The position numbers and the translations under genes were made by a program. A model generated the notes under the pieces. The model was given only the letters and a program-made list of their open reading frames with translations, did not search any database and was not told the DNA's origin. A DNA stretch of 64,000 nucleotides from Obrimoposthia wandeli. Lineage: Eukaryota. The stretch is taken from the NCBI GenBank assembly GCA_977020255.1, contig CDROCS010001239.1, positions 248,001 to 312,000 on the forward strand, given 5' to 3'. Below are positions 6,891 to 62,226 of the stretch, one piece after another; the stretch's first letter is position 1, and each line of letters begins with the position of its first letter.

Positions 6891-6900
6891 ATATTTGTTT

Positions 6901-12452: not shown

Positions 12453-12487
12453 GTACATCGCAGGACTAGTCTGTGATCAATGTCGGT

Positions 12488-18568: not shown

Positions 18569-19558
18569 TGTTACAAATACTTTCAATAAATTTCGTTTTC
18601 AAGAAGACTCCAAATTGTTTGAACTATATGTTTTATTTTCTCGATCAACTCTTCAATAGAACTTTCAATAAAATTCGTTTTCAAATATTGGGAAAGTTTT
18701 TTGTAGATATTTTTCCACTTGGATTGTTTTAACAATTTTCACCACAAAAACATAATGATCAAAAATTGTCAATGAACAGTAATAGTCTTTTATTCAATAA
18801 AAATTTTGTCTTCACAAACGTGTGACACAATTCTAAAATACATTCCTTAAATAGTCAGTAAATCCCAGGCACACACAACAGCTGTCCAGCCAAAACTATC
18901 CTGTAGACATAGCTGCACACATAAACATGCACCAAAATAGTACCTAAAATCAATATGTATGTGTGCAGTAGGAGAGGAAAATGGGAAAAATTGCACACAC
19001 ACGTACACAAAAGTTAAATTAATTTCACATACACACAACCAGAGACCAAAAAAGAAGAGATGGTGGCGATAAACTACTGATCTCCCAGCAGAGATACAAT
19101 CTCGCCCATGTCCTCCGACAGCTCCTCCACACAGCCAGGTCATTGCCAGATGAAAGGGAGAGAGAGAGGGAAAACCTGCGACAGATACAACATAATTTCC
19201 GGTCGAGAACCGGCTACAAAGGGAAGACCAATCCGTAGAACATGGCGGCTGGCCAAGAGCGGGGAGCAGAGGATGGCTGCGAGGAAAGGACAACGGCCTG
19301 GATGAGGTTGGCCGAATCAAAAAATGGACAAAGACAACAGTTGGCTGCTGATAACTGCGCTGGGTGGAGGAAATCTATGTGATGAAATCACCTTATAGTT
19401 CAAGCCGCCTTCCTGACGAGCCCGAAAAGGCGAAACGTGGTTTTCACCACGTTGGAAGCTGACTAGGAAAATACCTCCCTGATTGTGGGCATTTCAGTAA
19501 TTTTGAAAATGTCAATTTAAAGTGACTCTAATTTATTTAATTATTCTTAAACCCAACA
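18569..19558 (+). mobile_element. LTR-like unit H1 with hammerhead ribozyme
   Basis: TGTTAC...CCCAACA flanked by ATAT/ATAT; 3' end homologous to H3 and H4. Confidence 0.7.
19407..19459 (+). ncRNA. Type I hammerhead ribozyme (slightly decayed)
   Basis: GCCTTC CTGACGA GCC-cgaaaa-GGC GAAAC GTGG-ttttca-CCAC GTT GGAAGC; one stem I mismatch and a GUU triplet. Confidence 0.8.
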
Positions 19559-20282
19559 ATATTATTCAGAAGAAAAAGGTTAAAGAAGTAAGAAAATACA
19601 TCCCATTTCTGATATTCAGAATAGCAATGTATTTTACAAAGGTAATAACGTATCAGATGAACACGAAAGCGTTGGTCTGTGAAGAAATCCTTAGTATTTG
19701 TCGGGGAACAAAAGCTAGCCGTGGATTCAAAGTCCAAGAAACATATCAAAAACAACTCCCAAACACAAAATTCAGTATGAAGATGTTGGGGTTTCTATAT
19801 GAAACTACTTTTGGAGTTTAGATGTAGATCCTCTGATGGAGGCTCCCAACGTGAGTTCTATAGAAGTAGGGCTTGCAGTTGTTTGTGGCCTACTTAAGTT
19901 GTGCTTACCTGTCTCAATGTCTAATCTGAAGGTTTGTTTTTGTTTGTTATTGTGGAGATGTGTGAAGAGCTGTGTATCCAGCACTGGAAATATTCCCTTA
20001 GTGTGGTGTAACGTATGGAGTATCTGGTAACTGCTTGGGCTCAAAGGTGTTAGAAACAACGTTGTTTAACTTGTAGGAAAACTTTATTATTGAAACACAC
20101 TAATTTACGTTTCTAAAAATGACAACAACTAAATCTAACTTCGCTTCACTAACCCTCACACAAATGGGGATGTCTTACGTATCGATTTTATAAATTCTTT
20201 AGTCGAACGTTTACTTCTTCTTATGATTTTATCGTACAATGTGGCGATTTTAAAGTCAAATTATTTTACTGATTCTCTTACC

Positions 20283-20525
20283 AGGATTCAAAATTATTTT
20301 ATTGAGATTCATACTTCTTATTTTTACTCAATCCTTTTACTATGATTCAAATTTATCTTATTGAGATTCAAACTTCTTATTTTTTACTCAATCTTTTTAC
20401 TAGGATTCAAAATTATTTTATTGAGATTCAAACTTCTTATTTTTACTCAATCCTTTTACTAGGATTCAAAATTATTTTATTGAGATTCAAACTTCTTATT
20501 TTTACTCAATCCTTTTAGTAGGATT
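20283..20525. repeat. ~61-bp tandem repeat, about 4 copies
   Basis: AGGATTCAAAATTATTTTATTGAGATTCAAACTTCTTATTTTTACTCAATCCTTTTACT repeated. Confidence 0.92.
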
Positions 20526-20616
20526 ATCTTTAATATATAATACTAGAGTCAGATTATCTTAAATTTCTCACCTTCCTTTTCTGACTTTAAAGTATCCTCT
20601 CGTCGGTTCTTCCTTC

Positions 20617-22261
20617 TGTTAGGTTTAGGTTTTTGAAATAAATTAAATAATTAATTGATTTTATAGTGAAATAGAAATCCTTGAAAGCAAGGTTAGAATT
20701 AAATAAATTTAATATCAAAATTAAAATTGATGAGATTTAAAATTATAATAAAATATTTAAGGATGAACCACGATCGAGGTCGTTAGTGTGATGCGTAAGT
20801 ATTTATAAAAGTTTAGGGCCCCAAGAATCTTAATGACAAAAAGTGAGTCAATTAACGAAGAGTATAGAATCGAATTATTGTAAAAGTGCAGCTGCTCGAC
20901 TGACGAAGAAAATTGCTCTAGAATCCTGCGAGAAATCCGTGAACCAATTACCAGCTGACAGCCGTCTCAACAATCTCGAGGTCAAAAATGCTAAACTAGA
21001 CGATAAAATAGCAATTGTTTCTTCCCAGATATCCCACATAACTAAGGAACAACTTTCAAATTTGATTGTCAAAATGTAGACTCAAAATACAATTGAATAT
21101 CAAATGGAATTACTGCAGAAAATCTAGTCAAAAGTAATTGCATTCACAGTGGGTTATTTAATACCTTTAAAGAAGAAGAATGGCTCAGAGTTTATCGCAA
21201 GGATGAGAATTTAAAACTTACTGAGAACTGAGATATTAAAACGAGAAACTGCAGCTGAGAACTGGAGATAGTTCCAGCTGGGTGTAAGCCAAGAAAAGTT
21301 GAGAACTGTTCAAGATTGACCGATCTGGATCGGTTATACAGAGACAATTAACTGATTCCAAGTACGCTGACAGGGAAATTGAGACTGAGCTGAATTTCGG
21401 GAGTAGTGCAAGATTTCGGCTGGAACGCGGGATCATAGCGTTGAGCGATCACTGATCGATGCACGAGAGTGATCGGCTGGCGCGGATCAGGAAATGATTG
21501 GACTAGGATCGCGACGTGGACGTTGAGAGTTCGGCTGGCGCGGAAAAGAAGTGCGATTGGCGCGGATGGCAGAGTTGTCTAGTTTCAGATGACTATTAAT
21601 TTTTAAAGTAATTTCTGAAGTGAACTGCGTTTTCAACATTGATTAGAAAAGTTTTTCCGCTGTTGGTGAACTGCGTTTTCTTCTTCTTCTGACAATTGAC
21701 TTAATTTTGAAGTGAACTTTTTCATACATTTGAGGCTAAAAAGTAAATTTTGAAGCTCTTGAAAGTCTGAGTTTTCATACATTGAAAATAAGTAAATTTT
21801 TCCTGAAGTGAACTGCGTTTTCATTTCATTGACTAGTAATTTCCAAGTTGAAATACTTATATCAATTTAACTGTGTCACAATTAGAGTAAAGACTCTAGC
21901 GACCGACTAACCTATATTAAAACTACACACGATTCGTGGTTCATCCCCACTTGTGTTTACAGAAGTCTTAATATTTTACTGTAACTTTTTAAAATACGTA
22001 CGTAATTTTCAACGTATTGCTTTCAAGTGATTAGTCTAGTGTTTAACAATAAACAATTTCTACAACTAGAAAGCATTTTCTAAACCCTTCAGATTAAGAG
22101 ACATCTAAATCAAACACCTTTTACTAGATAAGATTTATCTTGAGATTCAGGCAACTATAACATTAAGTAGACTCAATCCATTCTTAGTAGGACCTCTTTA
22201 ATATAGAACTCACGTAGGTCCACATTATCTATAAATTTCACCTACTAGAAGTACCCCAACA
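20617..22261 (+). mobile_element. LTR-like unit D nested in A
   Basis: TGTTAGG...CCCCAACA flanked by CTTC/CTTC. Confidence 0.75.
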
Positions 22262-23399
22262 CTTCCACTTATTTTCCTTGAACAATGCTACCTCGGAAAG
22301 CAAAGCTATCCGGAACGACTTGTATTCTGTTTTCTCTTGCTTTCTCAAGTCCCTGCTTTATTTGTGCTTCTTTATCGCTTATAATGCTTTCACCAGACGC
22401 GATGTTTCCTAAAAAATAATTAAACTGCACTTAGTTTAAGTGCACCTACCTCTAAACGTGATGAATTCCCAAGCGAGTCTGCGGATTTCCTTGCTTGGGC
22501 GTTGTCTCGGCTGTCTGCCAACAGTCAATTCCCAGCGTGCTGTGGCTTCTGCTAATTGATTTTAGCTCCCTTGGATTCTTGCTTCTGCTAATTGATTTTA
22601 GCTCACTTTCTTCTATTAATTGAGTTGGGCTTCTGCTAATTGATTTTAGCTCACTGGGATTCTTGCTTCTGCTATATTTTCTCTTTTTTGCCTTCTATAA
22701 TTTTTGCACTTTTGGGCCCTAAACATTTTCTTATATACAGCACATTAAACACTTGACCTCCTCAAGGTTCTAAAATACTTTTCATTTTATTATTTTAATT
22801 TTTAAATTCTATTTTAAAATTTTATTCTAATTTTCAAGGATTTATTTCACTAGTTAATAAATAATTATTTTCCTAATATTATTAATTACCTAATCCTAAA
22901 AGAGACAAAATTATGGAAATCTATGTCGCACATTGCCACCGTACCAGGGCACCGGTTGGGTCAAACTCAATCCGGGGAGAAAGTATGAATTCTCGCGAGG
23001 AACAACTTTGACGATCAAAGGGAGTATAAGAAGTACCCTGCATTCCTCATATATGAGACCTACGTGGAGGCCTACTTTATTTACTTAACAATGGAAAGGT
23101 GATTGTTGCCACACAAAAAAGATTGTTAGCGAGCAACTGAAATGTGTACGAGAAAGTCCTGAGTGTCAGCAATGGTTATCAAAAGATAATTTCTAAATAA
23201 GGAAGAAAACCTACGAGTGTGACCTTTTATTCAAGAAAGATCATGTCCACTACTACGAAAGTCTGAAAACTACAGCACAACCTGTAGAATAAGTACTCCG
23301 GAAGTTGGGTATAAAGCCACCTTGTTTCAGGTTCTTGCACTACTATCGGCACCCATAACTTCAGAGAATATAGATCCTACTAAAAAATATCATAAAACG

Positions 23400-24290
23400 C
23401 ACAATCTTCGAGAGGAATAGGAGTGAGTCTGACAGGGTTGCCAAGCGTACTCAGAGTAACACTCCTCCTTTTAACTAGTATTCTCAGCATTGGAGAGGGT
23501 TAGGGTGCTGTTGTCATTGTTGACATCCTCAATGTGATGAGAGATAAGACCGTGGAACCCATGATCGTGATCAACTGCATCTAACGTAGATTTGTGGAGA
23601 AACAGTTTGCATTAAAGCATGAAAATGATAAAGACAAACATTACAAACCCGGAAATGCAGGAGCTGTCGTCAAGGACCATGATCTTGCCAAATTTTATTG
23701 TGCAAATCCCAAAAATAATCAATCAATCATATTATGATCGAGAATCTAGATATTCACAGTACGCCGAAAGGAAAAAACATACTTGGTTTCTTTGGAACTA
23801 AGATGTCAGAACCTATACTAACAGATTGGAGTACATTACCTAATGACCTATTTCAGAGAGGAGAAAGTGCCTTTAAGTGTGATATCGTTACTGCAAAGAT
23901 GGTAAGTTTCACTCTCAGGAAAGCTTCTGCCCCATGGCCTGATGGGATAACATACTCTGATATCAGAAAACAAAACCCAAATCGCAATGAAATAATGTCA
24001 TTGTTTAACAAGATATTGGAAGCCAGAACCATGCCTACTGCATGGAGAACCTTCAGGACTAAGTTTATTCCAAAAGCAAGAAAAGATTCTCACAGCGACA
24101 TTTCTGTGTAGAGAGTTGCCTTTACAAAGTACTGGGAAGTGTAAATACTTCTGATCTACAAAAGAAAAGCTTCTACATGCATCCCAAAACAGCGTCAGCA
24201 GGTTATAGCACAACGCAATAATCAATTTCGTCATATCCTTAACACAACAATAGATTAGGGCCGTCAAGTTATCCGGAACATAGACTCTAC
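23400..24290 (+). pseudogene. Non-LTR retrotransposon (R2/NeSL-like) RT remnant
   Basis: SAPWPDGITY (cf. SAPGPDGI.Y), LFNKIL....P.AW...T.FIPK in ORF 23734-24111. Confidence 0.7.
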
Positions 24291-24292
24291 AG

Positions 24293-24696
24293 CAAGGTTT
24301 CATAAAAAATTAACACCCCTGTTTTCACTGGGTTAAACACTTCGATGGCTGCACACGTGTGCCACAAATAAATGTTTGACATGGAATAAAAACAGAGTAT
24401 AGACTTCTAGATACATATGTGACAATTGTGTGACAATGCAGAAATCCGTTTACGACTTTCTGAAATTGCTCCAGATTTCACTACACTTGTTGGCAAACGC
24501 CAAGCGCAAGGGTCACACTAACATTTTTTAAATATAGTTTTCTCATTGATTATCTTTTTGAATGTTTCCATGACAGAATAGTATAATTGAAAACAATACG
24601 TATACGATGTAATCTTTTTGTCCATAGTAGAGGGGGGCCACAGCAATTTGCTGCAAACTAAAGGGGGCCGTGGTGAAAAAAGGTTGAGAAACCCTG
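24293..24696. mobile_element. hAT-type MITE
   Basis: Imperfect TIR CAAGGTTTC / GAAACCCTG with 8-bp TSD CTCTACAG (24285-92 and 24697-704). Confidence 0.8.
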
Positions 24697-27114
24697 CTCT
24701 ACAGCATATCTCAACAAACCTTCAGATACTACAAGAAGTATCTTCGTATATTTATACCATTTTATAAGTTAAAAATAATAAATTTACAATGAATCTTGGT
24801 TTAATCTTGGTTTAATCTTTACTTAATGTATCTGGTAAAAAAGAAAATCAGTAATTGAAAAGGATTAAAATTATTGTTTTAAATTTTGTTATAATTCAAA
24901 TTATCTGTTGATTTAAGTTATTTCAAAAAATTTAATTAGGTTAAATATAATTTAAAATTTGAACATAAAATAATTTTTTTTAACAGGTATGATAATTGGA
25001 AATAAATAAATGTAAAATAAAATTGAATCTCAAATTAACTTAGGTTAGATTTATTAGATTAAATATGTATAGATTACATTCACAATTGAAGAAAAGAAAT
25101 TATTTCAAATTATGTTACGTTTGAAATTTTGACTTTATAAGCATTCAAACATAAATAATTTAATAGTTTAGTTCAAAATATTTCAGTTTTACGGGTATTT
25201 AGTAATAATTTTTAAAAAGTGATATTATATTAAATTTTTTAACGTTATGAAATGTTATAATTATATTATTCAGAGGAGTCTAGTTGTGATTATTGTTTAG
25301 TTTGATCAAAAATTGTATGGTCAATTTGCTTTCAATAAATAGCATATATATAAAATTTACAATAAAAAAGAGAAAATTTTAAATTGATAAATTGTAAAAT
25401 ATATACACAGAAAATCTGTATCACTTTAACTAATTATTGAGTTTAAAGAGTATAGATGTATTCAAGTAACTATTTGCAAACGTTTGAATATCATTGCAAT
25501 TGTTTAAAATTTAATTATTGAAAACGATCTTTTTATATTTATTATAAATTGTCTTAAAACTTATTTTTAGTGAGTCTTCAGCTGTTTCTTCATCCTTTCA
25601 AAATATATGATGAACGAAATTATAAATGAAATATTCACAAATATTATATTTTTCTACTTCGTCATTTAAATTAAAAATTAATATAATTTTATAATGATGA
25701 TTTTAGAGTAAGTGAGCAATAAAAATTATAATTTTCTAACAAAATATATTAACTTCCAAAATATTTTGACATTCAAAATACAAATATTTCTTATCAGATA
25801 TTTAGCTTGGTCCCAAATTAAATGTATTATTTCCGTTTCTATTTAACAGACAGTCTTGCAGTATTAATTTTTATTACTTTAGACAGTTGCATTTTATTTT
25901 TGGGAAAGAATGACAGAATCTTTTATATGACTTTTTAATCAAAGTTAATCATATGTATCTAAAATGTTTTCTTAAATTTAAATCATTAATATTTATTATA
26001 AAAAAGTTTCCAAAAAATATCTCATTATTAATTTTAACATAAGTTTTATATTAAATATAATACATATTAGATATTCAGTGTTTAAAAATATCGTATTTTT
26101 TACTAATATCTATCAACTATATAACTACAAATTTGCTTATTAAATAAATTCATAATCTAATTTCATCTTGCGACATTTTGAAATTTCCACATGCGTGAAG
26201 TATTCCAAAAATGAATTACACAAATTTCAAAGATGCAATTCTTAATGTTAGTGAGGAACTGAAATCAAAGTAATCTTAGATTTTATTTATTTAAATTGAA
26301 ATAGATTAAAAATAAAAAACACTGTTGAACCCAAAGAAGATATTTTGTTTTTATGTCCTGGATCAATAAAAATTCTTGAAAAGTATTATGTTTGAACTAT
26401 GATTTAATTCAACTCAGTAAGCAGAAGAATTTTTCAGAAATCCATGAAGCCAGCGTGTATATAGCTAATAATGTTAAAGTAATGCGTTTTCTGATCAGTA
26501 ATCTAAACCAATGCCTTTCAGGACATTGATCAATCTTTAACAAGGCTCTATCAAATTTACAAAAGTAATTTCGATATCATACAGGTTCTTGAAAGTGAAT
26601 TGGCAAACATATCTAAAGTAAAGGTGGGTGATGAAGTCAACTGAAGAAACTTTCTTTAAAGTTTTAATATTTATACTATATTAACATTAAATATTTTGAA
26701 AGGAAAAAACTTTAAACATTTTGTAGCATCTCAAACTGCTAAATTATTTTTTTTTCTATAATTGAAATATGTTATTTCGCCTCTGACGAGAAATTGTAAA
26801 CTGGTCGGACAATTGCTCTCTGGCCACACTGGATTCATCCACTGCGTATTAAGGAGTTAAATTGGAACTTTAGTATTAAGTTAATATCGAAGTTACAATG
26901 GCTCTATGATAGGGCTTTCCAAGCTACGGATCATAAGCTAGTCCTCAAAAATATAATTTTACTTTTCATTATAATATGACATATTATGAGACTATTTCAG
27001 CTGCTCACATCGCAATACGCCACACTATGTCTTGTTTTTCTGAATTGCAGCTGGAAACCTCATTTTGACGTATCTGATCAATGAGAATGATGCTACCGAG
27101 ACTGATGAGTTATT

Positions 27115-27710
27115 ACAAACTGGTTTGGCCGCTTATATTGTATTCAGGGAGGTTTTCATTTACATAGGCTTAGGGCGCCAACCCTTATTGGCCATACGGG
27201 TCATTCGTCCGTCTAAATCTACGTCACTGTAGTCTGGCATATTGAAAGTTTCTTCGGATAGATTTGTTTGTACACATTCCCTAGAGATGGTTGATTTTAG
27301 AGTGCTAGAGCTTTCTTTTGATCATGTACTTCTTGCCATCCCCCGGAATCGTTGACGTATAGCGCTTCTTGTCTTGAGCTACTTCCAGCAGATAATATAT
27401 AACTCAGTCAACGCACTGCCGCTTGTCGGAACCAATAACGAACAATCATATACCCCAAGGTCAAGCCCAAGACAAGAAGCGCTATACGTCAACGATTCCG
27501 GGGGATGGCAAGAAGTTCTAGCACTCAAAAATCAACCATCTCTAGGGAATGCGTACAAACAAATCCTGTTCGAAGAAACTTTCAATATGCCAGACTACAG
27601 TGACGTAGATTTAGACGAACGAATGACCCGTATGGCCAATAAGGGTTGGCGCCCTATGACTATGTAAATGAAAACCTCCCTGAATACAATATAAGCGGCC
27701 AAAACAATTT
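27115..27710. repeat. Long palindrome (about 250-bp inverted arms, about 85-bp spacer)
   Basis: 27120-27378 is the reverse complement of 27462-27710, with few substitutions and one ~22-bp indel. Confidence 0.93.
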
Positions 27711-28172
27711 GCCTATTGGATCAATGGAGAGGACTGGAAGTGGAGTGTCGTAGACATCTGCCGACATTATTTTATGCATTTAATTATAAAATCTCTTCTA
27801 CAACAAAAAAATTATTCTCACAAAATTTCCTTTTCTGATTATTTTACACCAAATGTTCTTTCATTTTTGTTGCACGTCTGTATATTCAATTAGTAGATGA
27901 GTTAGATAATGGACGGTTAGAGTCACATTGAGGTAATCACTAAAATGTATATGGCTTCATTTGACTAATTTTAATATAAAAAATATAACTCTAATTAACT
28001 TTTACTTGGAAAATTAATTGTAAAATTAAAAAATAATTGTGTATCCTAACATAAAATGAAATAATCTTGTATTTTTCCGAATTATTTAAATAATCATTTT
28101 CAAAACTTCTACATAAACCCCATCAAGTAGCGCTATATCACATTCAGTTAGAGAGGGGGTATTTATGGATAC

Positions 28173-34402: not shown

Positions 34403-35971
34403 TCAAGTCACTGCTTCATACGTCATATTTTGGAATGCGGAAATCCAATCTGCAATGTCCTCTTGTGATGAAAGGATGTCTCTTGCCGGATTTTGATCTG
34501 TAGTAATAAACTGGATGCTTAAGCATTTTGTGGTAACGAGGATCTGGATGGCTACGATGATCCACCATTCATCCATGCTGCTGGGAATGCGTTTTGTCCT
34601 TGCTGTCCAGACAAGTCCCTGGTTATCGCATAAGATTTTGCCTCCTTCCAAGGCCCTCCAGCATGCCCACAGTAACGCCTTCCCTTCCTGAATATAAATA
34701 TTAGCCATGGGTAGTTTAAGTGCCGTGATTATGGTTCGCTGAGGTCTCAAGCTCACTACTGCCATCGATTCTTGTCTGGCATCTGTAGCCCACAGCTCTG
34801 GTTCTTTAAACTTATCCCACTTCCAAGTTTTTGCTTGGGCTTTTAGGAGTTTGTAGCAATTTTGTCTGAGCCTTGGGATCATGTAATTTATAGCATATGG
34901 CCAGTGCAAAACGTGCGCCATGTAATTTGCGAAACCCAAACCTTGTTGGGAGAAATCATCTTTGGATATAATTTCATCCAATGTTTCCCATTTATCCTTA
35001 GATATACTAATTTCCTGTTTATTTAAGTCAATGTCCATACTACAGTAAGTGACTCTATGTGCCGGGATTAATTGCGATTTTTCCCAATTTATCTGGACAT
35101 TCCATTTCTGCATGTATGGCGTGAGATGTTCCCACATCGGGCTTTCTTTATCAGCGATATCGTCAATGTGAACGTGTGTCAGCGGAATGTTCCATCGCTT
35201 TTGAAATCTCTTCATGATATAGGACAGGGTCCACTGCAGAATGGCGGGACTTTGCCTCAGCCCCATTGGCCACCTTGTGAACAGGAAATACTGGTCTCGA
35301 TGCCAGACGTTTGTAAGATGACGTGAACGAATGTCAAGAGGAATCTGGTAAAAGGCTACTGTAAGGTCGATCCTTGCTGCTTTTAAACCTCTGGGCAACA
35401 GTTTTAATTTTTCTCCGAGATTTGGTATCCGCATGTGTAAATTTGGTAGTGAGCTCGTTAGGTGAGCAAAGTCTACAATCAAGCGTCTCAAGTTTGAGTT
35501 CTGTTTAGGTACGAGTCTGATTTGTGAACAGAAAGGACCTTTCTTTGATTTTTCCTCGATTCCTCTGGCGAAGAGGGCATCGACGCATGCATCTATGTGC
35601 TTTTGTTCCTCTGTGTCATAGATTTGTCGCTTGGGCTGCCTTGACGATCTTATTTTGGCAAACGGTGAATATCCTGTAGCAGCCAACGTGCACACCCGTG
35701 CGTCAAGGTCGACGCTGTCCTCGTCATCAACCGGAACTGTGAAGGTTCCCAAAGGGAGACTGAGCTCATAGGCTTCACGCGGCCCCGGCTGATGCGATTT
35801 CTGAGGTGCCACTTTCTTCTGTGCGTGGAAATTTAACCAGCCACTAGAGTCATTGATGATGGCTCTGATCGTTGCTTGTGAGTCGGTGTCACTGATAGGC
35901 GATGTTTGAGCGAAAATTGGTTTTGAGGCAATTGTTGATGTTGAGCGAAAAACTCTTCTACTGTAATTGCG
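34403..35971 (-). CDS. Reverse transcriptase-RNase H with hepadnavirus-like motifs (HEART-like); YxDD reads HIDD
   Basis: RLIVDF, PNL...LLP.G....DLTVAFYQIPL, PMGLRQSP, HIDD, QINWEKS...P, WATDA, IYIQE, CDNQ, NPA. The frame is open from 35971 without an ATG. Confidence 0.8.
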   Translation of the reverse strand, partial: RNYSRRVFRSTSTIASKPIFAQTSPISDTDSQATIRAIINDSSGWLNFHAQKKVAPQKSHQPGPREAYELSLPLGTFTVPVDDEDSVDLDARVCTLAATGYSPFAKIRSSRQPKRQIYDTEEQKHIDACVDALFARGIEEKSKKGPFCSQIRLVPKQNSNLRRLIVDFAHLTSSLPNLHMRIPNLGEKLKLLPRGLKAARIDLTVAFYQIPLDIRSRHLTNVWHRDQYFLFTRWPMGLRQSPAILQWTLSYIMKRFQKRWNIPLTHVHIDDIADKESPMWEHLTPYMQKWNVQINWEKSQLIPAHRVTYCSMDIDLNKQEISISKDKWETLDEIISKDDFSQQGLGFANYMAHVLHWPYAINYMIPRLRQNCYKLLKAQAKTWKWDKFKEPELWATDARQESMAVVSLRPQRTIITALKLPMANIYIQEGKALLWACWRALEGGKILCDNQGLVWTARTKRIPSSMDEWWIIVAIQILVTTKCLSIQFITTDQNPARDILSSQEDIADWISAFQNMTYEAVT

Positions 35972-35997
35972 CTAATTTGTGGCAGAGGAACGTTATA

Positions 35998-36176
35998 CAG
36001 TAATTATTCACCTGTAAGGGTATTCATTAAAACATGTTTTTGAGAGAGACCGACACCGAATCACTTATAGATGAATCACTTATAGATGTCACCGGGCACC
36101 CTTATAGGTGAAGCGTGGAATTTTCGGTGACCGGACACCTTTATAGGTGGGACCCCTTATAGGTGAATAATTACTG
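35998..36176. mobile_element. Tc1/mariner(pogo)-type MITE
   Basis: TIRs CAGTAATTATTCACCT(G/A)TAAGGG, flanked by TA/TA. Confidence 0.85.
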
Positions 36177-36242
36177 TACACGTCCGCAGACATTATTGTG
36201 ATTAGCATGTAATCACGCCACCATTTTAGATAGGTGGGGTCA

Positions 36243-36752
36243 CTATGGGAGGCCAGCTCCTCTAGCAATCGTCGTGCGTCCACGGCCTCTGCGCGAGTTG
36301 AAACCTCGACCCGGAAACCTCCCTCGCCCCCGCGCAGGGAAGGTACGTCGGGATTCATAGCGGCAGATTTCCTCTGGGGAAATATCATTAATTTTTGCCA
36401 GCTTGGATATTTTGGCTTCGGTGGTGGTCCATCCCACTCTTGTGGCGGTGTATAACATTCCCAGCCTGTTGGCGATTTGAAGCTGAGCTTCTTGCAATTC
36501 TCCATTTGCAATTTTGGAACTGAGATCGTAAAGGCACTCGGCCTCGTGCAAAGATCGTTTGTCCTTGTCGCCCAACACTCGGAGGGTATCTGTTTTGATG
36601 TCTGGTAAGAGCATCTGTAGCTTGGTGGGCGGTTCCTCATAGTCAGGGTATGTCGCAGCAGTAGCAGGAGGATTCTGACTCTGACATTGAACATCCATTT
36701 GTCGTAAGAGGTATAATATCTCTGCCAAAGCAGGGTCTTGTTGTTGGGCCAT
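36243..36752 (-). CDS. Core/gag-like protein with Arg-Gly-rich C-terminal tail
   Basis: 169 aa, helical body with RLGMLYTATRVGW (resembles the DIRS-type ORF1 motif), tail RGRGRFPGRGFNSRRGRGR; directly upstream of the RT. Confidence 0.65.
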   Translation of the reverse strand: MAQQQDPALAEILYLLRQMDVQCQSQNPPATAATYPDYEEPPTKLQMLLPDIKTDTLRVLGDKDKRSLHEAECLYDLSSKIANGELQEAQLQIANRLGMLYTATRVGWTTTEAKISKLAKINDISPEEICRYESRRTFPARGRGRFPGRGFNSRRGRGRTTIARGAGLP

Positions 36753-37599
36753 GAGACTAAAAGTCTGTCCACCACCTGCAAGATGTCCTCTATCGTCCGA
36801 TTTGCTTCGCGTAAAGTAGCCAGCCTTTTCCGTGCTTTCGTCCGATTCCAGGTCGACTGATGCAGGGCTGTTGGTACTTATTTATTTCACAACACACCCC
36901 TTTAATTTGTTTACAACATATATATATATATATATTTAACCTTTACTATCTAAAGTTAACTTCCCACTATAAATATATGTATTATTTATTTTTATTTAAT
37001 TCTCCTTAATCTAACAGTAACATTATTTTTTATTTCATAAAATTTGTTTTTTCTTAAATTTTCCAACAAAGAAATCGTCATTTTCTTCTTAATTATCAGT
37101 GTATTACTAATTTAAAAAATTATCAATTAAAGTGGGTTGTTTATAGTTTAGAGAAAATATGTAAGAAAATATATTTTGTAACATTAATTCAATGGTGTAT
37201 TGATAATTCAAATTTCTCAATCCCAATATCATTACTTTACCACTGAAAAATATTTTTACTGAGCGGTGTAAACTTCAAATAGTTGAGTGCTGGGAAAATT
37301 TTTGCTTCAAACATGCATTCTTTCATTTTTTGTTTCCGTCAATTTTATAGAGATTTATTGATTTTCCGATATTGCCTAAACTGCGATTGATAATTAAATA
37401 AAAACTAACTTGAAGGACAAATAACAACTGTAAAATCATCAAACCTTTACACCTATTAACTCGGCTTACATTCATTGAATATTAAATGGGAAATATCATT
37501 TTCTATTCTTCCAATGTAATTTTATATTTACGAGTTTTATCAAACTAAAATAGTTTTTTTGTAATTTTTATATATGTATGCCGGAAAGTGGTTGAGTTG

Positions 37600-39282: not shown

Positions 39283-39990
39283 ATTGTTACGCTTCAATTG
39301 CCTAATACCGTGATTCCCTTTCCAGGTTTCCACTTATCTTTTGCAATATTTAATATATGTTTAAGAGTCTTTTTTAAGAATTGCATGAGATTTATCATAT
39401 CAAGTAAATTTAAAATTACATTTTATAAAATATGCCATAATTGTTGAAGATGTTCTAAAAGCCTTTCAGAAAATAATTCCGGCGATGTATAAATTCTGAG
39501 ATATTTTTACATACTTAAATTTGTTTTTAATGCATAAAGCATATCGTTGTCAATATGTCATTTGAAAAATAATTAGTTTTTTAAAGATATATTCTATATG
39601 CTATTAAAACTTAAATTAATTTGATTGGTTGAAATTTTAGAAATATATATTTATAACTTGATATTTTAAATTTGATGCTTTAAAACTTCTAGTTCTAACT
39701 TTTAAATTTTTATTTCTAAATCTCGATCTTCTTCTGTAGTTTTAAGATAATCGGTTTGCATTCTTTGAGCTTGTGCTTTCAAATCCACAGTAAAAGTAAA
39801 GTTAGAATAAAACTGTTTTGTTTAAAATCATACGGGCTACTATTCTATATATATATTAAAAAAGACAATATTAAACCAACGTGTATTATTATATACAATT
39901 CAAAAAATATATAACCATCTTGAAGGGAATCGGCGTTTGACTTGCGCTCAGAGGACCTGTCCTCAAAGATTACGAAGTCTGGTTTGAAGT
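39283..39990. repeat. Duplicated block; second copy at about 41347-41892 plus 43028-43200
   Basis: Direct high similarity; the second copy is split by H2. Confidence 0.85.
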
Positions 39991-40794: not shown

Positions 40795-41125
40795 AATCTT
40801 TCATCTCTTCTTGAAAAGTTACATCCACCTTTTCCTGGGGCCACGATCCTTGTTTGGATGCACGCTGTCCCCGTCCTCAAACGGCACTGTGAAGCATCCC
40901 TCCGCCAGACTTCGTCTATAGGCCTCCGCCAATGCTGGCTGAAGTAGTTTCTCGGATCGTGCCTGTCATCCTCTAAAAACCTCCACATATTTTCCCTCAA
41001 TTCGTGCGATTTAACTTTACTCTTACCATGTACTTCATCATTTTACTATAACATCATCTTACTACGTATTACAGTGGAAGAATTAACCACTGCTAACAAA
41101 ATCAAATACTATGAACCCTTTTACT
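40795..41125. repeat. Duplicated block matching about 32240-32620
   Basis: Near-identical GC-richer segment with small indels. Confidence 0.88.
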
Positions 41126-41892: not shown

Positions 41893-43027
41893 TGATCAGT
41901 ATTCAAAATGATATTTAGTTTCTGGTAATTGGGAAACCCATAAATAAATAGTGATAATATATTTTTCCAATAACAAGCAGGCAAAATTGTGTTTCAAAAT
42001 AATTGTGTCCCTACTACAAGTATTTCTACATATATACAGATTATGAACTGTTCCTGCAGCTAGACACACACAGGTAGAAAGATGATCAAGAGACTGTGTA
42101 TGAACACCACGATAAGGACACAGGTAAAATATAAGACAGTACATCAGCAGAATGTGTCTGACAAATAGAACGCCGATGGCAGCAGGGAAATCGAATGCAT
42201 ACTGTCTTATCATTATTCTTGACGGAGAAGGCTGTATTGCATGTTGTAGGTCATAATCAGATGCCAGCGCCATATCGCACTCTTTTCCATACTGGCCAAA
42301 TTGTCACACGCTTGCTCGGGGCTGCAGTTATATATCTGTGGTTGTGATAAATTGCTGAGTAGCGACACCGTACATAACAGCGCACAAGCATCCATCTGGA
42401 TCTGCAACACATTGATTGATTCCACATCCGTGGTCCTGATCTTGGAGAGCTCTATAATCATCTGCCTAATATCTTGTAGTTCGCCCTGGCCCGTCTCTTG
42501 CTGGAGAGCGCAGATGGTGTCCTTGTTTTGCTTCAGCTGCTTCTGTCAGATTCGAACAGTGACAGCGTTTTTGAGAGAAGAGAGAGGAGATGAACGAGAG
42601 GGAGAGAGAGAGAGATCTGGAAATTCCCGGCTCTGCACACATACACTGATGTGCAGCCGGGAATTTTCGCCGCCTGTTTGCATCTGGAGACAGCTTGCAT
42701 TCGGGGAAGGTAGTCCGGGAAGGCGTGGAAGATGGGTGGGTCTGCACAACCTGGGCGACTGTGTGCAGGTAAGTGCCCTTTATTTTTTATCTTTTATCTC
42801 TGACTTCGCGGGCATTTTGCCCACCGCGAAGCCAGAGATAAATCTGCCGTCCCCCTGACGAGCCCGGCAGGGCGAAACCGGTTAAGCCGGTCGGGGACTG
42901 AATCAACAAAACCAAATGCCAAAGTGCATCCCCATAATCACTTTAATCGCCCTCTAATTAAGGGAAACAATCAATTAACTCTCCCACAAAACAATCACAA
43001 TTAATTCAAAATTTCTCATTCCCAACA
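41893..43027 (+). mobile_element. LTR-like unit H2 with hammerhead ribozyme
   Basis: TGATCAG...CCCAACA flanked by CTAT/CTAT; the paralogous empty site near 39837 has a single CTAT. Confidence 0.85.
42849..42898 (+). ncRNA. Type I hammerhead ribozyme (perfect consensus)
   Basis: GTCCCC CTGACGA GCCC-ggca-GGGC GAAAC CGG-ttaag-CCG GTC GGGGAC; predicted cleavage after 42892. Confidence 0.95.
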
Positions 43028-43707: not shown

Positions 43708-44035
43708 GATAAACAGTAAACATGACACAATGATAATAGAACTAAACCTTATTTTTGACATTGACATCTGCATCGTTATCCACCAGATATTTAACAATAT
43801 CATTGTTTTTGTTATATACTGCTACATATAGAGGTGTTTCACATTTCTAGATAAACGATAAACACGACACTATGAGAATAGAACCAAACCTTATTTTTGA
43901 CATTGAAATTGACATCTGCTCAATTTTCCACCAGATATTTAACAATATCATTGTTTTCGTTATTAACTGCTACATGTAGAGGTGTATCGCCGTTCTAGAT
44001 AAACGGTAAACACGACACAATGAGAATAGAATCAA
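43708..44035. repeat. ~145-bp tandem repeat, 2+ copies
   Basis: AGATAAAC...ACACAATGA.AATAGAA unit repeated. Confidence 0.85.
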
Positions 44036-46974: not shown

Positions 46975-47724
46975 TAGGGGGTTCCCATAAGTGATTGTGA
47001 CACAAATCTGTCAGACTCATCGAATTGGAAATACCGAGGGACAAATTAAAATATGTTAATTTCAACTATCAATTAAATGTATCATCGTGGTATTTCATAA
47101 ACCTTGTTTCATCCATTCTTCTATGGCGATCAATAAAGAAAATATTCCATGAAGAGTACAAAAGCATTTCATTTCTTTCATTGAAGAAAATATTCAGAAA
47201 ATGAGATTTAGCTTCAAGTCGTACTGTCGACCCTCGTTAATGCGTCGTCGTAGATTCTCATAAATTCAACGCATTTAAAACTTTACATTATACATGAAAA
47301 ACAATTATATACATATATTTTTTAACTCAAGTACGTATATTAAAAATTATCCAGGATTAACAAAGTCTGTTTCAATGCTGCAGCTGTCATTTAACCATTG
47401 AAGTGATGTAAGCTTCTTCCATGTTGGACTTGTCTTACCATCATTGATACTATAGTCTCATAGTTCCACGAATTCCGCTAAATTGTCTCACTACACAGGT
47501 AGAGAAGTGCAGATCAGATGGAGCGAGTCCCAAGGTCTTTAATCTCCATTACCCTGCAGAAAATGGGGATTAGAAATACTGACGCTATCAGTGTTTTGAC
47601 CCATTAACCAGGGTGACCCTCTACATATTTCTCTATATTGTCCATCTTTATTGTGTGAAATAAAAAGTCTATAGAAATATTATGGATGAAAAGTAATGCC
47701 ATACTGACTTATGGGACACCTGTA
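46975..47724 (-). mobile_element. Decayed Tc1/mariner element
   Basis: Imperfect TIR (GTCCCATAAGT / ACTTATGGGACACCTG-TA); internal LAPSD mariner-like motif. Confidence 0.4.
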
Positions 47725-48565
47725 TAAAGAATCGTTAATTAATTTGAATACGTTGGTTGAAGGAAAGGTTACTATGATCTTTCTTCGTGTTTTGCCGTGG
47801 GTTAAATCCGCGACCTTTGACAAACATTGTCTGACCTCGTGATTATCTCATTTCATTCATATTAAATAAACCTAACGACACAATTTGTATAGACCTGAAC
47901 TAATTCTGTATGTGTCTTCTTTATGTGTCTGCTGAATTTTCCTTCCTTTTTACTGTTTACACCAATATTCTTATAATGTACCTTTATGTATTGTGAAGGT
48001 TTGTGCTACACGTTTTATTGGATAAAAGTGATTTCAATGAGAAATATATTTTTGTGAACAAATTTATATATTAGTTTAACGGTAATCAAACATCGTCCCT
48101 ATAAGATAATTTATATTTAAATGTTGCGAAAACTAATGGTTTAATGGTCGTAAATATCTAACAAAATTTTAAAATATTTGGACTTTTGTGAGAGAATACA
48201 TTTTTTGATTATATGTAGAATCCTGAACTCGATTATGGCATTGGTCGGCAGTCAATGAAGCTTCATTAAATGGTCACTTGTATTATCACGTTTCTTTAAT
48301 ATAAAATATTCTAAAATATTTTTATAAGATTAATCCTTTTATATAGTTTGACTAACCTGATTATGTATATGAAGAAATTGAACCAATCCTTACTTTTAGA
48401 AATTACGTAGATTATTTGATTGCTCTTTTTTAGATGAAGAACTATGGAATATTTCAATACGACTTAATGGATTTTTATGTTGATGGAAAATACAACCTCT
48501 TTAGACTTTGAGTAAAGCTCATATGGTATTTTATATTTTAATACATATATCGAAATTAATTTTGT

Positions 48566-48880
48566 TTAATGAGTCCCCTCTTTTTTGCTCCTATAAATTA
48601 CGTCTACAAACGGATTTTTAAAAAATTCTTCATCTGTTACATTAACTTGGATATCAGTATTATATTTGAATACATTAATACTCAAGTTATTAAGGTGTTC
48701 AAATCTTGATATCGCAGTTAATTTAACAGGTAAATATATTCCATGATACTGCAATTCATTTAAAAATAGGATATATTTACTGACATGCTCTCTATGCTCA
48801 GTAATTACATCGGTTTTGGGGATGGCCAACACGCAATACAGAAAGCAAAGGTTATCTTTAACAATGGAACGTGAAAGTTG
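48566..48880 (-). pseudogene. pPolB N-terminal fragment
   Basis: DNLCFLYCVLA...SKY...LN...GI..PV.L..I..FE..N..SINVF; homologous to 6800-6890 and 16150-16360. Confidence 0.8.
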
Positions 48881-48912
48881 AAGAGATCTAGGTGAAGGAA
48901 TGTATGAACTCC

Positions 48913-50730
48913 AGTAAGTGGATGTGTTCGGTCTAATCCACACCCCCTCCCCCCGGGGGGCTACAACTGTCATTTAAAACCATGCATATGTGTGGAGTGA
49001 AATTTCGTGCATGTGTGTGAAGTGAAATTTTCTGACATATTTAATTCTAAGGGAGTAACTGTTTATAAACAAATAGAGAACAATCATAAAAGATAAATTT
49101 ATAATGCCTTTTAAGAAGTTGATAGTAAAACGTAAAGCAAAGCTTAAGAAATAAAAAAAAATCATTAAGAAAAAAGAAGTGAAAAAATTATTTAAATCTG
49201 TAGTTAGAAATAAAAAAAAACTTAAATGGGTTCGAATATAAACAATATTTAAATTGAACCTTTTTTATTAAAATGAAGAAAATACAAAGAAGCATACGCT
49301 ATTTTAAAGCTTTAGTCAAAGCCTCTTCTCATAAGAGAATGATTATTCTTAAAGCATTTTCATCTTTTGTTGTAGATGAGTTATTGGAAGTTTTGTATAA
49401 TATAGTTTTGGGTCGAGTAAAAGTTGGAAATCGGAAAAATAAAGAAAAACTCTTCTAGATATTGCTAATGTAAAAGTAAAAAAGGAAACGAAATATTATT
49501 CTTAAACATAATGGTGGTTTCATAGGGGCTGTTATTCCAGTTGTTGCTTCAATTATCAGTAGTATTATAGCTGCGACACGTTCATAAACAATTATTTATA
49601 AAATCAGTTAAAGATATGGGTTCTAACCCTTCTTTACCTAAATTTAAATTATCTTTCTATTCAAATTGTTGTAATGGAGAAGATATGGTTCAATCCAAAT
49701 GATCCAATTGGCTACACCGGAGTTTCAAAATTAGCAAAAAGAACAAAACAAAAATACAAGAAAACGCAGAAATGGTTGAGCAACCTGTTAGCCTAAAGTC
49801 TGAACAAGCCGATAAGAGGAAGGTTTCCAACTAGAGCTTACAAAACCAGCGGTCCTAATAATTTATGGCACATGGATTTGATGGAGATGATCCCATATTC
49901 TTCCATTAATAAGGGATATCGATTTATTTTAACATGTATTGATGTATTTAGCAGGTTTGCTCGTGCAATTCCCGTTATAGCAAAGTCTTCAAAAGCTATG
50001 CTTGAAGCCATTAAAGAAATATTAAAATATGACATTCCACAAAATGTGCAAACTGATTTAAGAAAAGAATTTTATAATAAACAAGTTAAATCATTATTTA
50101 AACAAAATAATATAAATCACTACTCTGTGTTTTCACAATACAAAGCAGCAGTAGTAAAAATATTTAATCGTACTTTAAGAGATCGAATAAAAAGGTATTT
50201 CACAAAAGAAGGAAATAAAAAATGGATCCAAGTTTTACCTAATATAATACATGCATATAATCACTCGGAACATAGAGGTCTCAAGGTAATGAGACCTGTT
50301 GATGTTACTAATAAAAATTCTATGGATATTTGGATGAACAGGAATAAAAAAGAAAATATTAAAAAAGCTAAATATAAGAATAACGAATATGTCCGAATTT
50401 CGAAAATTAGCTCTACTCCATTTATTAAAAACTTTGATCAGAATTGGAGCGATGAAATATTTTGTATAAATAAAATTGATCAAAAGAGTAATCCAATAAT
50501 GTATACTATTATAGATGCTGACAATAATATCGTTCACGGTAAATTTTACGAGCAAGAACTACAATTAATATCAAATAAACCTAGCGTTTTCCGTATTCAA
50601 AATATATTAAAATCTAAGGGTGCCGGTAAACATAAACAATAATATGTTAAATGGCATGGTTATTCAGACCCAACTTGGATATCAGCATCTAATATAATAT
50701 GAAGTCTATGTATATGGTGTTACCTAGTAA
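48913..50730 (+). mobile_element. Maverick copy 2: left terminus fused directly to the integrase block
   Basis: Terminus 48913-49036, then 49037-50730 nearly identical to 57942-59635. Confidence 0.9.
49674..50702 (+). pseudogene. Integrase-chromodomain pseudogene
   Basis: Same lesions as copy 3: early TAA, VERFN changed to VKIFN (catalytic Glu lost), TAA before the chromodomain. Confidence 0.9.
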
Positions 50731-50815
50731 ATTTTAAAGGGAAGTAATCTGTATATGATTTAGCTAAAGCCGGATTTTATAAACATTATGATGATTCAAC
50801 CAATAAAGTAAAATG

Positions 50816-52204
50816 TGTTGGGTTATTAATTAAAAATAATTAATTTTTGTCAATTTAAATTGACATTTAATATTTATCTAAAATGCTCACAATTAGGGAG
50901 GTTTTCAAGTTCAGCCTCCGACGGGGTGGTCCCGTTTCACCCTGCCGGGCTCGTCAGGGAGGCGGCGGGGAAATATTGATTGCGGAGACCTTTCCGCCCA
51001 GTCTACTGTCCCGAGGATTGCCTTAGGATGCATTGACAATTCCCGGTTGCACGCGTGTGGGCGTGTAGAGCCAAGAATTACCAGTATCAGCGGCAACAAC
51101 CACATCAGTTGTCTCCCACTCTCCTGCTGACACACCTCATCGCATCCGGTCAATGTGTCTCCATCTCCCTTAATGCTCCTTGTGCTGCTGTCGACGCGAT
51201 ATCTCTCTCCAAACTCTCTAACACATGCCGATTAACTAACGGACAGCAATATGTGAGTGTGTGAAAATTTTACTCTCTCCATTGCCGAAGATACCCTTTG
51301 GAATTTGTCTCGCGTGTGTGTATGAGGCCATCTAATCCTCTCTGACGATATTGTTCATGTCGAAATGCAGCTAATGTGCTATCTCCTTTGATGTTCCATT
51401 TCGACAATCACGAGTGCATCCTGAAATCTCAGATTTTTCCACCTGCCAAGAATGTGATCAGACGGCAAACATCCCCGGCTGCACATGTATGTGTGCAGAG
51501 CCGGGATTCCAACACCATCATCATCGTCTATCTTGTTTGTGTGTGCTGTCTTCCACAGCATGCCTCTCTGCCTATCGCCATTTGCCATCAGTCACTCCCT
51601 GTCCTCATCTGTCTGTGGCAACGGTGGCTGCTGCATGGTTTGGCAGCAGTGATCTACCTACAGCGATTATGGACCAGTTTCCTACTTACCACGACGTGCC
51701 ATATATTTGTGTACTGGTGAGATCGCGGTTGCCTCCCTGTTATCATTATCTGATCAGCGACCATCTCTACCTTCAAGTCGACAATATATGTGGCCAATTT
51801 CCCCTCTCTTTTCTCTCGCAATCTATATTGCTACCTGGATATGTACCCGTAACTGACTTCCCTACCAATCGATCTATTTGTATGTCTGCCTATCTTTCCT
51901 CTATATATAACTGCCGATTTTATGCAGTAAAAATAAACGTTGTCATTGTTGATCGAATTTGAATCAGTTTAAAATAAATGAATATACACAAAAATTGAAC
52001 TACGAAATTTTAAGAAATCTTATTTCCCTATTAACAATTCAATAAAACGTAAGTCGTGAAAAATACTGTTGCTTCAAATCAATCCATTGATTTAACAATT
52101 TTGTCTTTAAAAGAAAATTTAAACAATATTTGGAATTTGAAATTTGAACGATATTTTGAATTAAACATTTGGAGTTTGTGTCAAATTAACGGAAGAAACT
52201 AACA
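50816..52204 (-). mobile_element. LTR-like unit H3 with hammerhead ribozyme
   Basis: Minus-strand TGTTAG...CCCAACA flanked by AATG/AATG; removal restores the BIR frame. Confidence 0.88.
50914..50963 (-). ncRNA. Type I hammerhead ribozyme
   Basis: GCCTCC CTGACGA GCCC-ggca-GGGT GAAAC GGG-accac-CCC GTC GGAGGC on the minus strand. Confidence 0.92.
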
Positions 52205-52904
52205 AATGTATATACTGTCAAGGTGCAATATCCGAATGGGAATGGTATCTTAAACCAATGAAGCAACATATGAAATTTTTCCTACATATCCATTTCTTTT
52301 AAAGTTTAATGTTTCAAATGTACCAATAATTGAAACTAGTAATAAGAAAATTGATTTTGATACATCACCATTGATTGGAAAAGTATATGTATCCGATATT
52401 GATATAAAATTACCTGATATATGCTATTCAAATAGTTTAGGACCCTATAATGATGCTAATGTTATTAAAAATATCGAAACAGATTGTATTATTGAATATT
52501 CTTTAACTATACAGAAATTTGATATGTTGATGGATACAAACCAAATCAGATATTTGAAAAGGTTTTTCACAAAAGATGGAATAAAATCGGTTTTAAAATA
52601 TAAAATGTTGCAATATGGAGAATACAAATCACTATTTGAAATGATTTGTGTTTTATCTTATTTAGAAATGAAACCTGAAAAACAATAAATAAATATACTT
52701 TCATACATTTTAAAGGAACCCGAATGTGTAGTATGTTTAAATAATCATATTGAAGTAGTATTTCTCCCTTGTGGGCATGTAAATACATGTATATCATGTT
52801 CTAGAATGTTACATTCATGTCCAGTATGCAGATGTCTGATCGAACGGAGAGTAAGAAATGTAAAATTTCATGGTATAAACAATTGAAATTTATGATTTAT
52901 ATAA

Positions 52905-53183
52905 ATGGATAAAAATTATAAATTAGTTGATGATGCAGTCGAGGAAATTATAAACGGAACAATAAATGGAGTTCAATACTTTTCTAGTTTTGATGGACTT
53001 TCTCGTGATAATGTAAAGGAAATTGTTCGCTCAACTGTATATAGAGATTTCAAACGGAATAAGGATTTTGAAAAATTCATTCAAATTAATCGTACAAACA
53101 TGATGTATATATCCTTTTCTGTGTCAAATTTTAATTCTCTGTTGTATATATTAATAAAACGTATATGTTATATATGGATTTGA
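52905..53183 (+). CDS. Small ORF downstream of IAP, unknown function
   Basis: 92-aa ATG ORF, co-oriented and closely spaced; no motif recognised. Confidence 0.35.
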   Translation: MDKNYKLVDDAVEEIINGTINGVQYFSSFDGLSRDNVKEIVRSTVYRDFKRNKDFEKFIQINRTNMMYISFSVSNFNSLLYILIKRICYIWI

Positions 53184-53223
53184 AGGATATCAAAAGATCA
53201 AAATACTATGATATTGTATTAAC

Positions 53224-53466
53224 TGAAAATATTTCGATAATTATAGAAGGGACATGATCCGAATTGTTATGATTGGGATATCTTGTTTCTGAAAATATTT
53301 CGATAATTATAGAAGGGACATGATCCGAATTGTTATGATTGGGATATCTTGTTTCTGAAAATATTTCGATAATTATAGAAGGGACATGATCCGAATTGTT
53401 ATGATTGGGATATCTTGTTTCTGAAAATATTTCGATAATTATAGAAGGGACATGATCCGAATTGTT
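53224..53466. repeat. 66-bp tandem repeat, about 3.7 copies
   Basis: Exact units; open on the minus strand as NNSDHVPSIIIEIFSETRYPNH. Confidence 0.95.
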
Positions 53467-53523
53467 AATTAATAATTTGTCTATTTTTGTTGTGTACATT
53501 TGCTGCTAATCTGCAGTTTTATA

Positions 53524-54321
53524 TGTTGCAATGGGCAACGAATGTCAAATGTCAGCAAGAGAGGGAGCAATACCAAATCCGATTTTTCACACACTGCACA
53601 CACAGTCACAGTATAAGGACAGGGAAAATGTGGAACAATATCGAGATCGGCACAAGTGGGCCCATTCTACAGGAAGCGATTGATAAAGTGCATATTTACA
53701 CGACAGTGGGCAGAGGGGGAAACAAATCTGGGTAGTGGTTGTGTCGCTTACAAAGGCCGGCTTGTATGGTAGTCCCATCTGTAGAAAAGGTAATCCAGGG
53801 AGATGCATCAATCCTGACAAAGTAGCGGGACACATGATCAGTTTCGATCACACACACTGCTTCTAGCATCACTGAGACTTGCTGCTCTCGGAGGAGCCCA
53901 TTATCAGGACTGGGGCACTCCTCTCCGCACATACAGTCACAGTAGACGATCCCGACACACCACGACACAGCTGATTTTCTTCGACCAAGAAGATTGTCAT
54001 CCGTAGCTTGTCGATTAGGATGACGGGGAATACGGGGAAGGATGGTGGAGAAGGATGGTGGAGGAGCTGGACCAGACCTGTCGCTGGCCGAGAAAGGGAA
54101 GACCGCCGCCGCATCCGCTGTTATTGCTGGGCGAAAAAAACATTGTGTTTAATCTTGTTATCAAGCCGCCTTCCTGATGAGCCTGGCAAGGCGAAACGGG
54201 ACCACCCCGTCGGAGGCTGAATTTGAAAACCTCCCAAATTGTTGGCATTTTTGATAAGTATTAAATGTCAATTTAAATTGACTTTAAAAATTAATTATTT
54301 ATTTTAATTAATTTCCCAACA
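53524..54321 (+). mobile_element. LTR-like unit H4 with hammerhead ribozyme
   Basis: TGTTGC...CCCAACA flanked by TATA/TATA. Confidence 0.78.
54168..54217 (+). ncRNA. Type I hammerhead ribozyme
   Basis: GCCTTC CTGATGA GCC-tggcaa-GGC GAAAC GGG-accac-CCC GTC GGAGGC; predicted cleavage after 54211. Confidence 0.93.
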
Positions 54322-54358
54322 TATATAAACAATCGTTTCTTTTGATTTATTATTATTG

Positions 54359-62225: not shown

Positions 62226-62226
62226 A

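Follow-up and report, generated by a model that had tools for sequence, protein, structure and literature searches.

A conserved antisense type I hammerhead at the U3 edge of the long terminal repeats of an env-bearing Ty3/Gypsy retrotransposon family in Obrimoposthia wandeli

Genomic hammerhead ribozymes are tied, in the literature searched, to Penelope-like elements and non-coding retrozymes, and their proposed job is the cutting out and circularising of transposition RNA (PMC4209133, PMC7229834, PMC4918200). Animal type I hammerheads have been assigned to Penelope-like elements and to non-long terminal repeat (non-LTR) retrozymes (PMC4209133, PMC7229834, 10.64898/2026.07.22.740005). Plant LTR retrozymes carry a type III hammerhead in both LTRs, on the strand that bears a Gypsy-type primer-binding site (PBS), have target-site duplications (TSDs) of 4 bp, and are described as non-coding, with circles of 600–1000 nt (PMC4918200). 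Four hammerhead-bearing units, H1 to H4, were analyzed here in a 64,000-nt stretch of DNA from O. wandeli (GenBank assembly GCA_977020255.1, contig CDROCS010001239.1, positions 248,001 to 312,000, forward strand; hereafter the window, numbered from its first letter). H1–H4 are solo LTRs left by a protein-coding, env-bearing family of Ty3/Gypsy retrotransposons. In this family the hammerhead lies antisense to genes and PBS alike, its predicted cut ~100–190 nt inside the U3 (unique 3′) edge of the LTR. The family shares with plant LTR retrozymes a hammerhead in both LTRs, the 4-bp TSD and the Gypsy-type PBS, and differs from them in being coding, in its type I topology and in the antisense orientation. 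The element backbone is of a known kind, and what appears to be new is the antisense hammerhead conserved in its LTR; a literature search, with most subscription papers and Repbase outside its coverage, returned no hammerhead described in an autonomous LTR retrotransposon and no antisense one.

Errantiviruses of nematodes, bryozoans and flatworms have been described with the gag-env-pol order of the backbone (PMC13524379), as has planarian Burro, of which the present family is half the size (PMC6431247). Ty3/Gypsy pol and a class III fusion env between gag and protease are shared with the flatworm elements Smed_errantivirus_1–6 (HSV/gB-type env, class Platyhelminthes_C1a; PMC13524379), and env motifs of the present family match the six Smed rows (Schmidtea) in a comparison made by eye only, a likeness that would point to a host of flatworm type. 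Additions in the present family are an exonuclease of DEDDh type on the 3′ side and the antisense hammerhead; ribozyme, hammerhead, exonuclease and antisense have no mention in the main text of PMC13524379. Bdelloid Vesta and Juno are likewise Gypsy elements with an extra 3′ open reading frame (ORF) for a DEDD 3′–5′ exonuclease, which is DEDDy (ORF3) in those elements and DEDDh, ISG20/ISG20L2/SDN1-like and accompanied by env here; hammerheads have no mention in that source (PMC5408684). Penelope-like elements, Terminons and animal non-LTR retrozymes resemble the family in having a type I hammerhead in an animal retroelement terminal repeat (PMC4209133, PMC7229834, 10.64898/2026.07.22.740005), whereas the present copies lack GIY-YIG/Penelope reverse transcriptase (RT) and tandem 170–400 nt units and are dispersed true LTRs with integrase-type ends and a PBS.

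The 1.35-Gb host genome was queried with each of H1–H4, and pairs ~13 kb apart were retrieved. Together with further same-strand pairs off a pattern list these gave 19 stretches, a sample that is not unbiased: 16 were full-length with gag, env and pol, 2 were internally deleted, and 1 was without genes; the C35 pair, 13.7 kb apart, had none. Elements were 13.5–15 kb long and began with gag, followed by the class III fusion env, then pol and last the DEDDh exonuclease; env stood between gag and pol in all 16 full-length elements. Pfam gene order was read from one copy (Monjiviricetes_fusion between gag and protease, then protease, RT, RNase H and integrase) and the RNase_T exonuclease from three copies. 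Top homologs of pol were Gypsy-type pol at 35–56% identity; judged by domain order, paired LTRs, PBS and pol homologs, the family is Ty3/Gypsy. TSDs matched in each of the 12 elements for which both ends could be resolved. LTR pairs of 17 elements differed by 0–1.9% substitutions, so that insertion was recent, and stops or frameshifts were present in all 17. Between elements whose LTR bodies are unrelated, pol is 86–98% identical at the nucleotide level, which makes them one family with many LTR subtypes.

All genes and the PBS lay opposite the hammerhead/CCCAACA strand in 18/18 gene-bearing stretches (of the 19; C555 was without a strict motif match), a count that omitted C387 and C6013 (rearranged or tandem) and C2837 (Maverick-interrupted). 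The same orientation was found in two of two further elements. At 30 loci picked by their PBS, the motif was present downstream within 1.5 kb on the reverse-PBS strand in 24, and the strict motif was on the other strand in none; the other six comprised one part-deleted motif further out, three hammerhead-less LTRs and two sites that were not LTR junctions. Since genes and PBS oppose the hammerhead strand, the 3′ end near which an initial annotation of the window had placed the ribozyme is a 3′ end on the hammerhead strand, and equals the 5′ end, the start of U3, in the coding orientation of the element. In this orientation the hammerhead can cut neither the genomic RNA, as retrozyme hammerheads do, nor mRNA. 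The suggestion that the genomic RNA is ribozyme-processed is wrong, both because the hammerhead opposes the PBS and all genes and because a hammerhead-less derivative (described below) spreads with the same primer sites.

H1 (18569..19558, 990 nt, TSD ATAT), H2 (41893..43027, 1135 nt, TSD CTAT) and H4 (53524..54321, 798 nt, TSD TATA) have their coding sense on the minus strand, and H3 (50816..52204, 1389 nt, TSD AATG, CATT on the hammerhead strand) on the plus strand; the coordinates, TG...CCCAACA ends and TSDs first reported for them were all exact. Their hammerheads lie at 19407..19459 (plus strand, H1), 42849..42898 (plus, H2), 50914..50963 (minus, H3) and 54168..54217 (plus, H4), with predicted cuts after 19453 (GUU), after 42892 (GUC), after 50920 on the minus strand (GUC) and after 54211 (GUC), respectively. 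The H1 hammerhead, with its GUU triplet, mismatches in stems I and II and a poor predicted fold, is probably impaired. The bodies of H1–H4 are mutually unrelated except for the last ~150 nt and one short H2/H3 block, and an adjacent PBS and internal sequence are both absent from all four. LTR pairs 89–91% identical to H4 flank gag-env-pol in C5403 and C1747, the hammerhead-end type of H2 does so in C152, C5745 and C8, and H3-like copies of 97–98% identity directly adjoin a PBS at L057, L058, L060 and L062. No gene-flanking pair was found for the H1 body in the genome search; the 3′ 150 nt of H1 is common to family LTRs. Because related LTRs flank gag-env-pol in pairs, the first of the initial annotation's options, solo LTRs of a Gypsy-like family, was borne out, and mini-elements of 0.8–1.4 kb or an animal analogue of LTR retrozymes were not: the units are single LTRs, and members of the family are 13.5–15 kb and protein-coding. 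A single CTAT at 39840..39843 (strand unassigned) is an empty paralogous H2 target site inside the window. The H3–H4 region recurs, flanks included, ~62 kb downstream (G000:C1239:360812-364317), and H1 also has a same-flank duplicate on C1346.

The motif has a 6-bp helix I, a 4-bp helix II with a GGCA loop and a 5-bp helix III; its CUGANGA, GAAA and NUH core, joined to three helices with helix I open, makes it a type I hammerhead. Rfam hammerhead models gave no match at gathering score, and only H2 was hit, weakly (Hammerhead_HH9, 19.1 bits, E 5.7). The motif very probably cleaves. A 25-nt core pattern had 6,356 matches genome-wide and none for the reversed control, so the matches are not due to chance, and GTC plus the start of stem I′ was kept in 5,472 of the 6,356; a PBS pattern had 2,141 matches against 9 in its control. 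Among 30 junction-pattern loci, 21 were true LTR ends, with a strict motif in 16 and a decayed one in 5. The end of stem I stands 99, 129, 98 and 104 nt from the terminus in H1, H2, H3 and H4, as first measured. The fixed distance that had been proposed on that basis holds within one LTR end type and gives way across the family to three main distance classes, the cut lying mostly 101–116, 134–146 or 175–196 nt from the LTR end according to end type.

The motif is retained across end types A, B, C and D, which differ in their terminal 100–190 nt, and the hammerhead is the only block common to nearly all of 16 LTRs with otherwise unrelated bodies: in the 16-LTR comparison its bin aligned with up to 15 of the 15 others, and bins further in with at most 4. 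Stem pairing and covariation were scored on 17 rows hand-picked across subtypes, which are related rather than independent, and the result is not a probability. Paired cells made up 98%, against 28–54% in slid controls; both sides had changed in 7 of 15 stem pairs, in all three helices, and the covariation score was reached by 0 of 500 shuffles, which extends the covariation seen at first in the window copies. Wobble pairs on the hammerhead strand were counted as G-U 37 versus A-C 8 in end type A, an asymmetry that was weak in types B (5 versus 0) and C (5 versus 3). Compensatory changes in three stems and the G-U asymmetry together argue for selection on the RNA fold of the hammerhead strand.

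The GCC flank, GGCA loop and UGA were near-invariant in 67 distinct copies, a set preselected by the core pattern. The same letters recurred as loop 1/loop 2 in 7/7 metagenomic type III hammerheads (L133–L139), found with a search pattern that contained the GCC and the GCA of loop 2 and from which UGA was absent. These seven share with the present motif the stem II/loop GGCA and the UGA-N-GCC loop 1 module, and differ in their type III permutation and their prokaryotic context, with no retroelement genes nearby by tblastn. Because the near-invariant letters recur there, GCC, GGCA and UGA are probably a retained tertiary contact between helix I and helix II; a 3-bp GCC:GGC loop contact may be involved, and comparable pseudoknots have been shown in general (PMC3088659). 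On the window copies alone, a CCUCC "switch" downstream of the motif, locking the 3′ product, seemed plausible; it was rejected, being no better than shuffled controls in 14 subtype representatives. One chimeric LTR end (L241:1229-1460, G000:C51) holds two hammerheads of different subtypes 169 nt apart, and could be a seed of a small retrozyme-like unit.

Copying does not depend on the motif in cis. In subtype E the hammerhead was absent from 10/10 loci, and a marker for this subtype had 705 matches genome-wide. All three fetched pairs (G000:C232:189900-196200, C433:66600-72800 and C646:746400-752600; L234–L236) bound an element of 5.1 kb that retains gag, the beginning of env and an integrase tail, and is without protease, RT, RNase H or exonuclease. 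Its LTR pairs are 99–99.9% identical, and its PBS and plus-strand primer junction are those of the family; since this hammerhead-less derivative is young and abundant, the motif is dispensable in cis for copying. It also differs in lacking the hammerhead from the non-coding plant LTR retrozymes (PMC4918200). At four loci holding hammerhead-less LTRs, an Rfam search returned no other ribozyme family. Lineages that code for pol mostly keep the hammerhead.

Because copying works without the motif and the motif faces antisense, the hammerhead is best regarded as an accessory device acting on antisense RNA, one that would serve fitness and not a step of reverse transcription. The reading preferred here, to which a probability of about 0.5 is given, is that the U3-edge hammerhead acts as a guillotine on antisense or read-in transcripts. 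Transcription of the antisense strand would start divergently in the GC-rich LTR body or read in from host DNA further downstream, and the hammerhead would cut such transcripts ~100–190 nt before they leave the LTR. At the 3′ LTR, RNA entering the exonuclease-pol-env-gag antisense would be left uncapped, with a 5′-OH, and severed from its start, which may reduce silencing of the element through double-stranded RNA and PIWI-interacting RNA (piRNA). In 5′ LTRs and in solo LTRs, such a cut would shorten the transcripts that read out into the host DNA. In favour of this proposal, env-carrying gypsy elements are targeted by piRNAs across insects (PMC13172572).

Several points weigh against the guillotine proposal. 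A downstream ribozyme product with a 5′-OH is reported to be stable and not degradable (PMC6938672), so the action could be "uncap and sever" at most, not "destroy", and antisense RNA past the cut might last and go on pairing with sense RNA. An antisense promoter was not found, nor was a conserved TATA in the LTRs compared. Pairing probabilities of stem I in ViennaRNA were 0.2–0.6 for several subtypes. C6a is a full-length copy with a matched TSD and the motif missing from both LTRs, from which it follows that autonomous copies can insert without the motif. The apparent link between loss of pol and loss of the hammerhead has a single derivative lineage behind it.

An unlikely alternative is that the hammerhead defines where a short, capped antisense LTR RNA ends at its 3′ side, this RNA acting in trans to control copy number, as a decoy or as a short antisense mRNA. 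In its favour, nearly all of the motif stays on the 5′ product after a type I cut, and several LTR bodies have stop-free frames of 150–200 codons on the hammerhead strand. Against it, the sequence upstream of the motif is unrelated between subtypes beyond ~50–150 nt, and the LTR bodies had no common ORF and no Pfam match among the 72 ORFs of at least 110 aa at the first 30 pattern loci.

Also unlikely is that the motif is an inert passenger at the RNA level, taken up a single time from a Penelope/retrozyme or phage-like source and since retained through its linkage to the integrase attachment end or through a DNA-level role. The motif does adjoin the conserved terminus and has been lost in some lineages without obvious cost, and among 56 loci from an LTR-body search only 41 had an intact core, several hits ending short of the LTR end. 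Against this reading, the terminal 100–190 nt vary among end types A–D while the motif stays, and the compensatory changes in all three stems and the G-U asymmetry point to a selected RNA fold.

Cuts at both LTRs might instead free a unit-length antisense RNA on which helix I re-forms, the ligated circle being a retrozyme-like intermediate or antigenome. Each full element is bounded by two hammerheads of the same orientation, type I hammerheads that have tertiary contacts are good ligases and turn non-LTR retrozymes into circles (PMC7229834), and the plus-strand primer site falls short of a clean purine tract. This route is nevertheless improbable: the tRNA-like PBS is on the coding strand and the antisense strand is without one, the derivative with the same primer sites spreads without a ribozyme, and known ribozyme circles measure 170–1000 nt, against 13 kb here. 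Very improbable is an animal LTR retrozyme, or a set of non-autonomous mini-elements, in which the hammerheads cut the genomic RNA for circularisation. This reading has the 4-bp TSD, the TG...CA ends and the hammerhead in an LTR in common with plant retrozymes (PMC4918200), and is contradicted already by the orientation of genes and PBS, the motif being antisense to the PBS strand of a 13.5–15 kb coding family; each unit is one LTR that has no PBS or polypurine tract (PPT) of its own, and the sole abundant non-autonomous derivative found is hammerhead-less. Ordinary Penelope pseudo-LTRs, of which type I topology is typical (PMC4209133), have next to no probability: their reading fails because no GIY-YIG or RT domain was found in the 72 ORFs near the pattern loci, six of which match the RNase_T of the family, and the ends are precise, the TSDs 4-bp and stem III stable rather than minimal.

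The search for full-length elements yielded the paired LTRs and the PBS; where a PPT would be expected lies the conserved plus-strand primer junction ...AGGAT/TG, purine-rich in type B and pyrimidine-rich in type A. The commonest plus-strand primer site is CCCCCATAGGAT, not a clean purine tract (e.g., L171, L175, L182), and a short inverted repeat, TCTGA/TCAGA, stands before it. Within the exonuclease ORF, 12 nt complementary to the PPT/U3 junction were put down to chance: they occur in 6 of 17 elements, encode IPNNPQ and lack conservation. Among the LTRs compared, neither a TATA nor a poly(A) position was conserved. The PBS, TGGTGAGCYCGA, sits 1–3 nt from the LTR and, by its sequence, is tRNA-derived: in two copies (L131, L132) it is extended to 26 nt, with tRNA T-arm, acceptor strand and CCA copied. 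It may be Trp-tRNA-like. The host primer tRNA gene was not found with two patterns, one matching a bacterial-looking tRNA cluster and the other the two extended PBS copies; the cluster (Ser-Pro-Arg, L110:1262-1523, G000:C1622) may be a contaminant or transferred DNA.

The 3′ exonuclease is a separate ORF with an RNase_T match, closest in PDB to ISG20L2, ISG20 and SDN1, and its DEDDh motifs are visible in a four-copy alignment. Amino acid identity between subfamilies is 36–68%, far more variable than gag or pol (e.g., L023:1364-2488, L071:1483-2619); its N-terminal 180 aa gave no family match and no usable Atlas match. A protein search with the env region returned no match among proteins of 886–2820 aa, and searches of viral_contigs with the exonuclease alignment and with pol returned no relatives. 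The same in-frame env stop occurs in C1401, C2565, C555, C152 and C5745 despite their different LTR subtypes, and may be a shared lesion or a read-through site. Long ORFs lie on the hammerhead strand between two H3-type LTRs at L067:5083-9669 (G000:C6013), which may belong to a host glycogen-debranching enzyme gene.

Maverick/Polinton-like pieces occupy 1-6900, 15260-16340, 48400-50730, 52254-55000 and 57454-63700 of the window, with H3 and H4 among them; integrase was assigned via Pfam, and polB, ATPase, capsid and RING ORFs by eye. At 34403-36881 (minus strand) a 522-aa RT ORF (RVT_1, E 6e-10) gave weak PDB matches to Ty3, caulimovirus and foamy RTs and no integrase match, with two overlapping ORFs upstream; in appearance it is presumably hepadnavirus- or DIRS-like. 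A near-perfect 47-bp hairpin is found at 12487-12597, its microRNA matches being spurious, and a 600-nt foldback with 146-nt arms at 27116-27711.

Thousands of hammerheads in this genome are on the wrong strand for circularising transposition RNA, and another function is needed for them. If antisense RNA is severed, a transposon would have in the motif a ribozyme-based means of weakening its silencing by small RNAs. It is possible, as a tentative extension, that an enveloped autonomous LTR retrotransposon uses its antisense hammerhead as a counter-defence, cutting backward transcripts, including piRNA-cluster precursors where a copy has inserted into a cluster, before they reach the genes and working beside a captured ISG20-like exonuclease, and that the device may be common to flatworm gag-env-pol errantiviruses. 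Hammerhead-bearing LTR subtypes and a young hammerhead-less lineage within one genome provide a built-in comparison.

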